Shown piece after piece: positions 527 to 8,695 of a DNA stretch of 64,000 bases; within the stretch, counting starts at the first letter, position 1; every line of letters starts with the position of its first letter. Both the position numbers and the translations under genes were made by a program. Below the pieces are notes generated by a model. It did no database searches and had not been told where the DNA came from. It saw only the letters and a program-made list of their open reading frames with translations. Source of the DNA: Escherichia coli. GTDB taxonomy: Bacteria; Pseudomonadota; Gammaproteobacteria; Enterobacterales; Enterobacteriaceae. The stretch is from NCBI RefSeq assembly GCF_048403405.1, contig NZ_CP183129.1; one strand, given 5' to 3'.

Positions 527-951
527 ATCCCCTCCAGAAATATGTGACTTATCCTTTACGCTGGCAGTATAACGGGAAAGGCCATGCTAATACGTGATGA
601 CATCACATTTAAGCATGGCAAATGTCTGAAAAATGAGCGAATAATCGCGTTATACTCCCTCTTGCTGATAAGCCTGCAAAAACAACAAAATCAAATAATT
701 AGCATGATAAATTATTTTTTATTACGCCTAAAGGATTAAATCTTTCGCTTGCACTACACTGTCAATCAGACAAATGACTATATGGGGCAACCCGCTGTTG
801 CCCTAAATCAAATTTACTGGATTTATTTATCTGGCGAATGATTTGCCTTCGTTTTTAAAATAGCCGCGCATTATTTCCGTCGTCACTTTTTTACGACGAC
901 CCTATAAAACGACCATATTTTTCACAGGGTCAATTTTTAATTGAGGTGGAT

Positions 952-1647
952 ATGTTCAGAAAATTAGCAGCTGAATGTTTTGGTACTTTCTGGCTTGTTT
1001 TTGGTGGCTGTGGTAGTGCCGTACTGGCCGCAGGCTTCCCGGAATTAGGCATTGGTTTTGCCGGCGTGGCGCTGGCATTCGGTCTGACCGTTCTGACGAT
1101 GGCCTTTGCTGTTGGTCATATTTCTGGTGGTCATTTTAACCCGGCGGTCACTATTGGTTTATGGGCTGGCGGACGTTTCCCGGCAAAAGAAGTCGTTGGC
1201 TACGTAATTGCCCAGGTTGTCGGCGGTATTGTTGCGGCGGCGCTGCTGTATTTAATTGCCAGTGGTAAAACGGGTTTTGACGCGGCAGCCAGCGGTTTTG
1301 CTTCTAACGGTTATGGCGAGCATTCGCCAGGCGGTTATTCCATGCTTTCCGCACTGGTAGTTGAACTGGTATTGAGTGCAGGTTTCCTGCTGGTGATCCA
1401 CGGCGCAACCGACAAATACGCTCCGGCAGGTTTTGCACCGATCGCTATTGGTCTGGCCTTAACCCTGATTCACTTAATCAGTATTCCGGTGACTAACACT
1501 TCTGTTAACCCGGCGCGCAGCACCGCGGTTGCTATCTTCCAGGGCGGCTGGGCATTAGAACAACTGTGGTTCTTCTGGGTGGTGCCAATTGTCGGCGGTA
1601 TTATCGGTGGTCTGATTTACCGGACTCTACTGGAAAAGCGTAATTAA
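952..1647 (+). CDS. aqpZ: aquaporin Z (water channel, MIP family)
   Basis: Translation [19 protein letters not shown]... contains both NPA motifs (HFNPAVT, NPARS); 231 aa from ATG 952 with GAGG RBS; track ORF 946 starts at an upstream GTG. Confidence 0.95.
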
Positions 1648-1657
1648 TTAACGCAGA

Positions 1658-1686
1658 AGGCCTGGCGCAATGTCAGGCCTTTTTTA
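1658..1686 (+). terminator. rho-independent terminator of aqpZ
   Basis: Hairpin aggcctg / caggcct followed by ttttt, 10 nt after the aqpZ stop. Confidence 0.7.
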
Positions 1687-1740
1687 AATATATTGATTCA
1701 TCTTCCTGTTGCGCTCCTTGATGTGTTAAGCCACATATAG

Positions 1741-1935
1741 TCACTGGCGCAGGGAGCGCGCAGGGGGCGGCCAATCGCCGCCGCCCCCTGCACCCCCAGG
1801 CTCTGGCGAACAAAATCGCCGCTGCGCGGTGCCCTCGACTTATCCCTTACGGCTACCGGGTCGGGCGCGAGGTAACATCCCTGTAAAACGCGCCCTCAGC
1901 CCACATCCATGTGGGCTGCCCCGGCCTTCAGGGAA
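1741..1935. repeat. cluster of GC-rich extragenic palindromic units (REP/BIME-like family not assignable)
   Basis: Perfect 10-bp inverted repeats cagggggcgg/ccgccccctg (1771-1800) and cagcccacat/atgtgggctg (1898-1919) plus further GC-rich dyads in a non-coding aqpZ-lysO spacer. Confidence 0.4.
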
Positions 1936-2130
1936 CGCCTCGGCGATTTTGACGCCACCAACACCGGTGCGGTTTGTAATTAAAGCGCAAGAATATCTTT
2001 AAATGAAAATGAATACCCTACCGATCCTTATGCATAACATTTCCTTTTAATTGCAACTTTACTCGCCCTTCCGCTTTCAGTAGTGTGTCATCGCGCATTT
2101 CGACTTCATCTTTGCAAGGACTGGGTTTTC

Positions 2131-3030
2131 ATGTTTTCTGGGCTGTTAATCATTCTGGTTCCCCTGATTGTGGGTTACCTCATTCCTCTTCGCCAAAAAG
2201 CTGCATTAAGAGTTATTAATCAGCTATTAAGCTGGATGGTTTACCTTATTCTCTTTTTTATGGGTATCAGTCTGGCGTTTCTCGATAACCTCGCCAGTAA
2301 CCTGTTGGCGATTCTGCATTATTCTGCCGTCAGTATTACCGTTATTTTACTGTGTAATATTGCCGCCCTTATGTGGCTGGAGCGAGGCCTGCCATGGCGC
2401 AATCACCATCAGCAAGAAAAACTCCCGTCGCGTATTGCGATGGCGCTGGAGTCGCTAAAACTGTGCGGCGTAGTAGTGATTGGTTTTGCCATTGGCCTGA
2501 GTGGACTGGCTTTCTTACAACATGCGACCGAAGCCAGTGAATACACCTTAATTCTGCTACTTTTCCTCGTCGGTATTCAGTTGCGCAATAATGGCATGAC
2601 CTTAAAGCAGATTGTCCTTAATCGCCGGGGAATGATTGTCGCCGTGGTGGTGGTTGCCAGTTCATTAATTGGTGGTTTAATTAACGCCTTTATTCTTGAT
2701 CTTCCCATCAATACCGCGCTGGCAATGGCCTCTGGTTTCGGCTGGTATTCTCTTTCCGGTATTTTATTGACTGAATCTTTTGGTCCGGTAATCGGGAGCG
2801 CGGCGTTTTTTAATGATTTGGCCCGTGAGCTGATTGCTATTATGTTGATCCCCGGGCTGATTCGCCGCAGCCGCTCTACTGCACTGGGCTTATGCGGTGC
2901 CACATCAATGGATTTCACCCTGCCCGTTCTTCAACGTACTGGCGGGCTGGATATGGTCCCGGCGGCGATTGTTCACGGTTTTATTCTTAGTCTGTTAGTG
3001 CCGATCCTCATCGCCTTTTTCTCTGCATAA
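2131..3030 (+). CDS. lysO: lysine exporter LysO (YbjE)
   Basis: Track ORF 2083-3030; product from internal ATG 2131 (MFSGLLIILVPLIVGY...) is 299 aa, a multi-pass membrane protein matching YbjE/LysO. Confidence 0.85.
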   Translation: MFSGLLIILVPLIVGYLIPLRQKAALRVINQLLSWMVYLILFFMGISLAFLDNLASNLLAILHYSAVSITVILLCNIAALMWLERGLPWRNHHQQEKLPSRIAMALESLKLCGVVVIGFAIGLSGLAFLQHATEASEYTLILLLFLVGIQLRNNGMTLKQIVLNRRGMIVAVVVVASSLIGGLINAFILDLPINTALAMASGFGWYSLSGILLTESFGPVIGSAAFFNDLARELIAIMLIPGLIRRSRSTALGLCGATSMDFTLPVLQRTGGLDMVPAAIVHGFILSLLVPILIAFFSA

Positions 3031-4837: not shown

Positions 4838-5806
4838 ATGACGATGCCAACGAATCAATGCCCGTGGCGGATGCAGGTTCATCACATTACGCAAGAAACG
4901 CCGGATGTGTGGACGATTTCCCTGATTTGCCACGATTACTACCCATATCGCGCCGGGCAATATGCACTGGTCAGCGTGCGTAACTCAGCGGAAACGCTGC
5001 GTGCTTACACCATTTCCTCCACGCCAGGCGTGAGTGAATACATCACCCTGACTGTGCGGCGGATTGATGACGGTGTCGGCTCCCAGTGGCTGACGCGCGA
5101 TGTAAAACGCGGTGATTATCTCTGGCTTTCGGACGCGATGGGGGAATTTACCTGCGATGATAAAGCAGAAGATAAATTCCTGTTGCTGGCGGCAGGCTGC
5201 GGCGTCACGCCGATTATGTCGATGCGTCGCTGGCTGGCGAAGAACCGTCCGCAGGCCGATGTGCAGGTGATCTACAACGTGCGTACGCCGCAGGATGTGA
5301 TTTTCGCCGATGAGTGGCGTAACTATCCGGTAACGCTGGTGGCGGAAAATAACGTTACCGAAGGCTTTATCGCTGGTCGTCTCACTCGCGAACTGCTGGC
5401 AGGTGTCCCTGATTTAGCCTCACGTACCGTGATGACCTGTGGCCCTGCTCCATATATGGATTGGGTAGAGCAGGAAGTGAAAGCGCTCGGCGTGACGCGT
5501 TTCTTTAAAGAGAAATTCTTCACCCCAGTAGCGGAAGCGGCGACCAGCGGTCTGAAATTCACCAAACTGCAACCGGCACGAGAATTTTACGCCCCGGTTG
5601 GCACCACGCTACTGGAGGCGCTGGAAAGCAATAACGTTCCGGTTGTCGCCGCCTGCCGCGCAGGTGTTTGCGGCTGCTGTAAGACGAAAGTGGTTTCCGG
5701 TGAATATACGGTGAGCAGCACAATGACGCTGACCGACGCCGAAATCGCTGAAGGTTACGTACTGGCCTGCTCCTGCCATCCGCAGGGGGATTTGGTTCTC
5801 GCATAA
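4838..5806 (+). CDS. hcr: NADH oxidoreductase for Hcp (FAD/2Fe-2S)
   Basis: Translation MTMPTNQCPWRMQVHH... with C-terminal CRAGVCGCCK ferredoxin motif; AGGAG RBS 7 nt upstream of ATG 4838; track start 4832 is a TTG two codons upstream. Confidence 0.93.
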   Translation: MTMPTNQCPWRMQVHHITQETPDVWTISLICHDYYPYRAGQYALVSVRNSAETLRAYTISSTPGVSEYITLTVRRIDDGVGSQWLTRDVKRGDYLWLSDAMGEFTCDDKAEDKFLLLAAGCGVTPIMSMRRWLAKNRPQADVQVIYNVRTPQDVIFADEWRNYPVTLVAENNVTEGFIAGRLTRELLAGVPDLASRTVMTCGPAPYMDWVEQEVKALGVTRFFKEKFFTPVAEAATSGLKFTKLQPAREFYAPVGTTLLEALESNNVPVVAACRAGVCGCCKTKVVSGEYTVSSTMTLTDAEIAEGYVLACSCHPQGDLVLA

Positions 5807-7693: not shown

Positions 7694-8695
7694 ATGATTG
7701 ATTTACGCAGTGATACCGTTACCCGACCGAGCCGCGCCATGCTCGAAGCGATGATGGCCGCCCCGGTTGGGGACGACGTTTACGGAGACGACCCTACCGT
7801 TAATGCTCTGCAGGACTATGCAGCAGAGCTTTCCGGTAAAGAAGCCGCCATTTTTCTGCCTACCGGCACTCAGGCCAACCTGGTCGCTCTGCTCAGTCAC
7901 TGTGAACGCGGCGAAGAGTATATTGTCGGTCAGGCCGCGCATAACTATCTGTTTGAAGCCGGTGGCGCGGCGGTGCTGGGCAGTATTCAACCGCAACCCA
8001 TCGACGCGGCTGCCGACGGCACGCTACCGCTGGATAAAGTGGCGATGAAAATCAAACCCGACGATATCCATTTCGCCCGCACCAAATTACTCAGTCTGGA
8101 AAACACCCACAACGGCAAAGTGCTGCCGCGGGAATACCTGAAAGAAGCATGGGAATTTACTCGCGAGCGCAATCTGGCGCTGCATGTTGACGGTGCGCGC
8201 ATCTTTAATGCCGTGGTGGCTTACGGCTGCGAACTGAAAGAGATCACGCAATATTGTGATTCGTTCACCATTTGCCTGTCGAAAGGACTTGGGACGCCAG
8301 TCGGCTCGTTACTGGTCGGTAATCGTGATTACATTAAACGTGCCATCCGCTGGCGGAAAATGACAGGTGGCGGGATGCGCCAGTCCGGCATTCTGGCTGC
8401 CGCCGGGATGTATGCCCTGAAAAATAACGTCGCGCGCTTACAGGAAGACCACGACAACGCCGCCTGGATGGCGGAGCAGTTGCGTGAAGCAGGCGCGGAT
8501 GTGATGCGTCAGGACACCAATATGCTGTTTGTTCGCGTCGGGGAAGAAAATGCTGCCGCGTTAGGCGAATACATGAAAGCGAGAAACGTGCTGATTAACG
8601 CCTCGCCGATTGTCCGCCTGGTGACGCATCTTGACGTCTCGCGCGCTCAGCTGGCGGAAGTCGCCGCCCACTGGCGCGCATTCCTGGCGCGTTAA
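7694..8695 (+). CDS. ltaE: low-specificity L-threonine aldolase
   Basis: 333-aa translation [20 protein letters not shown]..., PLP-dependent aldolase family. Confidence 0.95.

Follow-up and report, generated by a model that had tools for sequence, protein, structure and literature searches.

The palindromic segment between aqpZ and lysO of Escherichia coli as a probable copy of TRIP1a/RRS-lysO, with a tentative link to the TwoAYGGAY motif

Identity of the aqpZ-lysO segment

We analyzed a stretch of 64,000 nucleotides of Escherichia coli DNA (contig NZ_CP183129.1; the window) and, within it, a GC-rich segment in the spacer between aqpZ and lysO. A preliminary description had noted two perfect palindromes in this segment and had proposed an extragenic repeat different from the repetitive extragenic palindrome (REP), an mRNA stabilizer or decay element, or a structured RNA. 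We conclude, with a probability of roughly 0.85, that the segment is the aqpZ-lysO copy of the repeat TRIP1 (TRIP1a), identical to the 'Replication Risk Sequence' (RRS) RRS-lysO, and a gap-forming element with a G-quadruplex (G4) and a multi-helix fold as in K-12. The element is already known and experimentally characterized, and no new object is described here.

Over 314 nt, the window copy shares 95.9% identity with the aqpZ-lysO copy of K-12, and it is flanked by the same genes in the same relative orientation; a 10-bp indel in the left flank and a few substitutions separate the two alleles. The published K-12 coordinates (TRIP1a, 915016-915281; RRS, 168-434 bp upstream of lysO) map onto the window segment. 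The G4 motif is identical, and the paralogues are those of TRIP1a/RRS-lysO: a full-length copy with 88-92% identity lies in the dusC-yohP spacer, and further copies occur at alx-sstT and putP-efeU, as published. No difference of substance was found, and the window segment represents that element in another strain.

Li et al. (2024, Genes 15:236; PMC10888264) credit Rudd (1999, Res Microbiol 150:653) with the first description of TRIP1. The K-12 copies are located at aqpZ-ybjE (915016-915281), putP-ycdN (truncated) and yohI(dusC)-yohG, and other strains carry TRIP1d at alx-sstT and TRIP1e at copA-ybaP (PMC10888264). The two main copies were named RRS-lysO and RRS-dusC by Pham et al. (2024, NAR 52:6392; PMC11194060). 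Neither the RefSeq record of K-12 nor that of the closest strain has a feature annotated in the aqpZ-lysO spacer. Note that the string 'TRIP1' in an eLife paper on MukB is a formula artefact and not the repeat.

The features of the element, followed by its surroundings, are as follows (window coordinates).

About 1702-1981, minus strand: TRIP1a/RRS-lysO core, the part that aligns in every copy; its G-rich 'sense' strand corresponds to the minus strand of the window.
1778-1797, minus strand: published RRS G4-forming motif 5'-GGGGGTGCAGGGGGCGGCGG-3', an exact match on the minus strand with none on the plus strand.
1760-1771/1780-1791: GC hairpin (first palindrome), 12-nt perfect arms GCAGGGGGCGGC/GCCGCCCCCTGC, loop GGCGAUUG on the minus strand; overlaps the G4 motif.
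1897-1906/1909-1918: hairpin 1 (second palindrome), 10-nt arms CAGCCCACAT/ATGTGGGCTG; minus-strand form CAGCCCAC-AUGGAU-GUGGGCUG, with an AYGGAY loop.
1863-1895, minus strand: hairpin 2, outer stem GGGCGCG/CGCGCCC around UUACAGGGAUGUUA, core 1873-1886.
1941-1956, minus strand: closing stem P1, 5' arm GGCGUCAAAAUCGCCG.
1805-1821, minus strand: closing stem P1, 3' arm CGGCGAUUUUGUUCGCC.
1711-1759, minus strand: 3'-terminal helix GCGCUCC (1753-1759)/GGAGCGC (1711-1717) with a variable 38-nt loop.
1651-2026, minus strand: allele-specific cassette of the aqpZ-lysO spacer, between flanks common to strains with opposite element orientation.
946-1647, plus strand: aqpZ, the gene left of the element.
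1657-1687, plus strand: aqpZ terminator hairpin AAGGCCTG/CAGGCCTT (1657-1681), then TTTTTT; context, outside the repeat core.
About 2122-3030, plus strand: lysO, the gene right of the element.

The aqpZ-lysO spacer measures 474 bp. Its GC content is 68% over 1741-1960 compared to 42% and 40% in the two flanks, and the ~280-bp core has 64% GC overall. Both palindromes of the preliminary description are present; the second has the 10-nt arms reported, while the first is longer than claimed (12-nt instead of 10-nt arms). A perfect arm of 10 nt or longer turned up in 0.7% of 2000 dinucleotide-preserving shuffles of 1741-1935, one of 12 nt or longer in 0.15%, and two arms of at least 10 nt in none. 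Further GC-rich dyads, also mentioned earlier, were found as an outer stem with 16-nt arms (1811-1826/1936-1951; 88% complementarity) and as the pairs GGGCGCG/CGCGCCC and GCGCTCC/GGAGCGC. The folding z-scores against shuffles were -5.3 for the minus strand and -4.7 for the plus strand. The range originally assigned, 1741-1935, contains the palindromes but is too narrow for the element, given the alignable core of about 1702-1981 and the cassette of 1651-2026. A 57-residue open reading frame at 1829-2002 overlaps the element.

REP sequences and bacterial interspersed mosaic elements are likewise GC-rich extragenic palindromes dispersed in E. coli spacers. In contrast to these, the element shows no sequence similarity to REP, is 280 bp long instead of 35 bp, occurs in ~3 copies instead of several hundred and has a multi-helix fold. 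A BLAST search of the element against the whole window returned only the element itself, and the sequence at 18630-18680 is a canonical REP (GCCGGATGCGACGCGGACGCCTTATCCGGCCTAC), in agreement with the preliminary description. The proposal of a different extragenic repeat family was borne out as well: the element is non-REP and dispersed, has matches in 5425 of the 5426 complete E. coli genomes searched by BLAST, and already carries the names TRIP1 and RRS. The segment is not unique within a genome, with a median of 3 places and up to 10. The RSA/BEE95 repeat, which we presumed to be a candidate, was neither confirmed nor excluded and is moot after the identification as TRIP1/RRS.

Fold, strand and replication gaps

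To describe the fold we used an alignment of 24 copies from Escherichia, Kluyvera, Pseudocitrobacter and another Enterobacteriaceae genome. Most loci were retrieved by an exact 18-mer of hairpin 1, and the invariance of that hairpin is therefore in part a result of ascertainment. The consensus fold comprises 68 pairs, with 98.7% of cells paired. Changes on both sides were present in 17 pairs, compared to 6.4 ± 1.7 pairs in column shuffles (0 of 500 reached 17) and 0-3 in slid controls. Helices 2-4 (P1 region) contain 6 pairs changed on both sides, so that the P1 closing stem is supported by covariation, and the terminal helix contains 2. The GC hairpin shows a compensatory change of C-G to A-U in the WP4, E1V33 and E. 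whittamii copies. In the yegH-asmA copies its stems are rebuilt, as are the P1 and terminal helices, with A-U to U-A compensation in the 3' arm of P1. In TRIP1d of E. coli 2012C-4502 the stem of hairpin 1 is rebuilt around an unchanged loop (GACGCGC-AUGGAU-GCGCGGC). The stems are thus conserved across copies by way of compensatory changes, indicating that the structure is under constraint.

The G-rich strand was predicted to fold better in 24 of 24 copies, with a mean of -144.5 kcal/mol compared to -128.3 kcal/mol for its complement; G-richness, however, favors the G-rich strand in any folding comparison. At the 49 pairs predicted on both strands, 16 cells were G-U as opposed to 1 A-C cell. 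Because of the fold energies and the excess of G-U, the strand of importance appears to be the window minus strand, which is also the G4 strand of Pham et al. This asymmetry is consistent with a function of the G-rich strand as a single strand.

In K-12, the G4 site blocks Pol I, II and IV on the strand that bears it (PMC11194060). In vivo, the two RRS appear as RecA and SSB peaks over ~2 kb of the lagging-strand template. An ectopic RRS gives rise to new ssGap-seq peaks, and an inverted RRS gives no peak. Deletion of both RRS was obtained only with amplification of a 200-kb region or with an inverted or ectopic RRS present. Deleting or inverting both RRS altered genome-wide supercoiling as measured with psoralen (Psora-seq), and the authors propose that the transient gaps are topological relief valves near the borders of the Ter macrodomain (all PMC11194060). 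The pilE G4 of Neisseria gonorrhoeae, which they name as the sole bacterial analogue, is likewise strand-dependent and tied to gap or nick formation, but differs in sequence, serves recombination at a single locus and is not a dispersed repeat.

By this mechanism, the G-rich (minus) strand of the window copy would fold on itself into a multi-helix structure carrying the G-quadruplex-forming run. When this strand serves as lagging-strand template, polymerases would stop at the G4 site and the replisome would re-prime downstream, leaving a transient gap of up to 2 kb that would load SSB and RecA. The palindromes first noticed correspond to the GC hairpin overlapping the G4 run and to the first of two conserved GGA-loop hairpins. 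We infer that the window copy behaves as the K-12 copy, because of its sequence identity, its identical G4 motif and its K-12 orientation relative to aqpZ and lysO.

Orientation polymorphism, copies and turnover

Several points weigh against the identification as a gap-forming element as in K-12. The mechanism rests on the K-12 work of one laboratory and is extended to the window copy by analogy. The lagging-strand placement of the window G4 follows from gene orientation only, a placement that holds in K-12. Just 15 of the 24 copies in the alignment contain the exact G4 motif, and no run of four G-tracts exists in the relatives checked from Lachnospiraceae and Shewanella; unlike the G4, the two GGA hairpins are kept throughout. 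Moreover, natural orientation varies. At aqpZ-lysO, the window, K-12, E. albertii, E. whittamii and E1V33 have the element one way, and O55:H7 CB9615 (L004), A30 and E69 have it reversed. At dusC-yohP, K-12 and SCPM-O-B-8794 share one orientation, with WP4-W18-ESBL-08, E69, E. whittamii and Escherichia sp. E1V33 reversed; O157:H7 genomes (hits H100-H104) match the reversed dusC allele at 99.7%. E. coli E69 (CP089930.1; L031, L032) has both the lysO and the dusC copy reversed relative to the flanking genes. Reversed copies had been counted before, at 1255 of 4703 for locus a and 2789 of 5741 for locus c (PMC10888264). E69 would be a counterpart in nature to the double-inversion strain made in the laboratory, in which gap peaks are missing, and both G4 strands of E69 would be on the leading-strand template. 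This natural polymorphism fits poorly with the published claim that RRS orientation and positioning are highly conserved.

Both orientations were observed at four Escherichia loci in total, aqpZ-lysO, dusC-yohP, alx-sstT (E. coli 2012C-4502 opposite to E. whittamii) and yegH-asmA (the K-12 remnant opposite to SCPM-O-B-8794). In a BLAST comparison of the window with the O55:H7 CB9615 spacer, the shared flanks stop at 1650 and resume at 2027, and the core between them is inverted at 90.5% identity. Reversed alleles have different linkers, and the whole stretch from the upstream stop codon to the conserved downstream flank is exchanged. Cores in opposite orientation at one locus are 89-90.5% identical, compared to 88.5-90.4% between loci. 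A simple inversion in situ is ruled against by the differing linkers and by cores that are no closer within a locus than between loci. As the source of the two orientations, these results favor spacer haplotypes that are old and recombine, or an inverted doublet with differential loss.

The yegH-asmA spacer is a sixth TRIP1-like locus, outside the five listed by Li et al., and the element is full length there in some Escherichia genomes (L018, 8741-9020; L064; L075; L084). In K-12 this copy (2,139,501-2,139,737; L092, about 5502-5738) is a 5'-truncated remnant that lacks the GGA hairpins, has the opposite orientation and lies beside REPs. TRIP1b, the truncated putP copy, is likewise decayed: its central 123 nt are lost, both hairpins included. 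In the E. whittamii yegH-asmA copy (L064, about 8600-8690), another structured repeat of ~79 bp (…GGCCCATCCCTGGGCCTCACCCCTTCGGGGCCAGCGCAGGCGCTGTTCAAAATTGCTCCCGGCAATTTTGTC…) is inserted. Where other strains have TRIP1d, the K-12 alx-sstT spacer (L091, 3049-3259) contains an unrelated GC-rich palindromic repeat, CTCCCTCTCCCTTCCAGGGAGAGGGTCGGGGTGAGGG...CCCCTCACCCTAACCCTCTCCCC, suggesting that the slot just past the alx stop codon takes interchangeable repeat cassettes. Plasmid pZ1323HEC0475-2 (NZ_CP148327.1, 42 kb; L003) carries a chromosomal poxB-hcr-hcp-lysO-aqpZ-ybjD-ybjX-macA segment; its RRS belongs to the reversed allele and has lost both GGA hairpins through an internal deletion. An experimental-evolution paper lists intermediate-frequency 'mutations' at K-12 positions 915,226 and 2,229,177/2,229,205 in several populations (PMC11510482). 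As these positions fall inside TRIP1a and TRIP1c, they probably reflect cross-mapping of reads or gene conversion between the copies.

In other genera, homologues occupy unrelated spacers, at recD-argA and adjoining glnK, tsgA, xthA and pntB. Head-to-head doublets of two diverged modules were found in Kluyvera, Pseudocitrobacter, another Enterobacteriaceae genome and Edaphovirga (L040, 9250-9776; L014, 1864-2400; L027, 1480-2108; L042, 4100-4620; L041-L051). The second ('B') module of the doublets is strongly diverged and in opposite orientation, and it keeps the architecture and the type of GGA loop but has other stems. The center of the Edaphovirga doublet is AT-rich with AAAGAC-type tandem repeats, and Edaphovirga cremea has at least 11 near-identical copies. 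Four matches in the Thiotrichaceae metagenome-assembled genome NORP24 (L036-L039) share only the hairpin GCCCACAUGGAUGUGGGC. Shewanella spp. (L008, L011, L053, L056, L078, L079) contain multi-copy intergenic repeats with the exact hairpin GCCCACAUGGAUGUGGGC followed by a CAGGAUG-loop hairpin. The Thiotrichaceae and Shewanella repeats may be more distant members of the family. Note that the hairpin-1 18-mer also occurs by chance in coding sequences (L010, L012, L017, L021, L022, L024, L055, L059 and others), as the conserved protein motif W-P-T-W-M-W-A in many Bacteroidota, archaeal and Bacillus genes, and in a gene start region in Rhizobium and Agrobacterium; these coding matches are unrelated to the repeat.

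Such a distribution raises the question whether TRIP1 is mainly a selfish or decaying non-autonomous mobile element, with hairpins serving its spread as single-stranded DNA and the replication effect a by-product. We consider this improbable as the main explanation, though TRIP1 may have a selfish component. It would account for the 1 to 10 copies per E. coli genome, the presence in unrelated housekeeping spacers of different genera, the 11 near-identical matches in E. cremea, the 4 in the Thiotrichaceae genome, the inverted doublets with AT-rich centers, the decayed copies, the swapping of whole cassettes between conserved flanks and the two orientations at four loci. However, neither terminal inverted repeats nor a target-site duplication was found when filled and alternative sites were compared, and no adjacent transposase was found; the housekeeping neighbors of the Lachnospiraceae, Shewanella and Thiotrichaceae members gave no link to a transposase or phage. 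Retention in 5425 of 5426 E. coli genomes, together with the published synthetic lethality of the double deletion, argues for a host function, and the compensatory changes point to continuing structural constraint.

Proposed kinship with TwoAYGGAY and RNA-level readings

The minus strand of the window at 1813-1952 matched the Rfam family TwoAYGGAY (RF01731) over the full model with 30.6 bits (E 0.014 in a 1-kb search), below the gathering score of 43 bits. The Kluyvera homologue (L040; 86% identical) reached 54.2 bits and exceeded this threshold. The adjacent Pseudocitrobacter module scored 49.2 bits, the Edaphovirga repeat 41.1 bits, and Lachnospiraceae loci sharing hairpin 1 scored 72-79 bits. 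TwoAYGGAY was described as a motif with two terminal AYGGAY loops and an often very long P1, present in Clostridia, gamma-proteobacteria and human gut sequences, with no function assigned (Weinberg et al. 2010, Genome Biol 11:R31). In the portion of their alignment that was available, none of six E. coli accessions sought was present.

The two elements have in common a long P1 around two hairpins, the first with an AYGGAY loop in the window, and a UGAG linker between the hairpins, and 24 nt of window hairpin 1 are identical to the Lachnospiraceae members retrieved. In contrast to the model, loop 2 of the window reads AGGGAU, with R in place of Y, and its inner stem is mismatched; the model also lacks the enterobacterial 3' GC hairpin with its G4 run and the terminal helix. 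In E. coli, hairpin 2 has a degenerate inner stem; the copies from Kluyvera and Enterobacteriaceae have a perfect one (ACAUGGAUGU). Loop 1 of the window reads AUGGAU. Loop 2 has this sequence in L027 and L040, while other E. coli alleles show A-GGAC or AAGGAC. Moreover, work on RRS to date has dealt solely with DNA, whereas TwoAYGGAY was put forward as an RNA. Each of the 34 family members examined carries two or more copies of the CsrA-type consensus CA(N)GGA(N)G on the G-rich strand and none on its complement. Since the 'B' modules were found independently of the hairpin, they provide independent support for fixed loops with covarying stems. The link to TwoAYGGAY is made neither in the TRIP1 paper, where the terms 'Rfam', 'CsrA' and 'GGA' do not occur (PMC10888264), nor in the RRS paper, where 'hairpin' does not occur (PMC11194060). 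The two papers are likewise silent on the conserved loops, on the occurrence of both orientations at four loci and on the double reversal in E69. We tentatively propose, as a possibility clearly short of even odds, that RRS/TRIP1 is the enterobacterial branch of TwoAYGGAY and that the conserved core consists of the paired CsrA-type ANGGA hairpins on the G-rich strand, not of the G4.

A rival reading is that the element is, or derives from, a TwoAYGGAY-class RNA made from the window minus strand, which would act as a small decoy for CsrA or as a cis element in a 3' untranslated region (UTR). The full-length RF01731 match in the window and the Kluyvera score above threshold are in line with this, as are the GGA motifs confined to one strand and the covariation of hairpin stems around fixed loops, seen in TRIP1d of E. 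coli as well as in the divergent 'B' modules (Kluyvera, Pseudocitrobacter, Edaphovirga). CsrA was found to prefer 'AUGGA in apical loops' by in-vivo cross-linking and immunoprecipitation (CLIP; PMC5207318), and selection in vitro (SELEX) gave the consensus RUACARGGAUGU, with sites 10-63 nt apart being bridgeable (PMC7652899). Both this consensus, in which AC/GU pair around a 6-nt loop, and the in-vivo preference are matched by the predicted loops ACAUGGAUGU of hairpin 1 and UACAGGGAUGU of hairpin 2. The candidate sites CACAUGGAUGUG (core 1904-1911) and UUACAGGGAUGU (core 1875-1884) are ~28 nt apart, and one CsrA dimer could bridge them.

Nevertheless, we regard such an RNA as quite unlikely. 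No transcript evidence was found, and there is none for RRS in PMC11194060. A consensus scan of 1500-2300 identified neither a sigma-70 promoter nor an intrinsic terminator on either strand, and -10/-35-like boxes upstream of the G-rich strand are, by eye, not conserved between copies. The genomic SELEX table of Shimada contains only a promoter in the lysO direction in the aqpZ-lysO spacer. In the window allele, both neighboring genes lie on the strand opposite to the GGA motifs, and the orientation relative to genes is not conserved. In the E. coli CsrA CLIP-seq tables of Potts et al. 2017, taken without their column headings, dusC and ybjE are marked 'No' in all four target columns, and the part of the supplements that was available has no entries with TRIP1 coordinates. 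The stem of hairpin 1 has 9 bp, compared to mostly 4 bp or fewer in SELEX winners (PMC7652899). Retrieval with the 18-mer explains part of the invariance of hairpin 1, and G-richness alone could explain the strand asymmetry. CsrB/CsrC/McaS-type RNAs likewise have GGA in loops in an ACA...UGU context and two sites within bridging distance, but carry 9-22 sites compared to 2-3 here, and the element has no known promoter or BarA-UvrY control. The predicted resemblance to CsrA-binding RNAs is at the level of motifs only.

A REP-like 3'-UTR element that stabilizes or terminates the upstream mRNA is very improbable: the element is intergenic, GC-rich and palindromic and directly follows stop codons at several loci, but it sits beyond a separate terminator hairpin of aqpZ, it can face the upstream gene with either strand, its hairpins are not followed by a U-tract and it lacks similarity to REP. 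The role in mRNA stability or decay considered in the preliminary description is accordingly unsupported, because aqpZ has its own terminator upstream of the element, orientation relative to the flanking genes varies and the only activity demonstrated is at the DNA level, as replication gap formation.

In conclusion, with the segment identified as TRIP1a/RRS-lysO, the window contains one of the two sequences flanking the Ter macrodomain that, as published, make the replisome leave gaps and whose combined loss K-12 survives only with compensation. Natural strains with both copies reversed (E69 and the O157:H7 lineage) are in tension with the lagging-strand G4 model. What is new is a connection between two bodies of work without mutual citation, that on the RRS/TRIP1 DNA element and that on TwoAYGGAY, whose function has been unknown since 2010. 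If the kinship is true, the ancestral activity would depend on the hairpins, through a dimeric protein such as CsrA acting on RNA or on an exposed single strand, and G4-driven gap formation would be a later addition in Enterobacteriaceae. In that case, a motif catalogued as RNA in Rfam may act as DNA, or the RRS phenotypes may include an RNA component.

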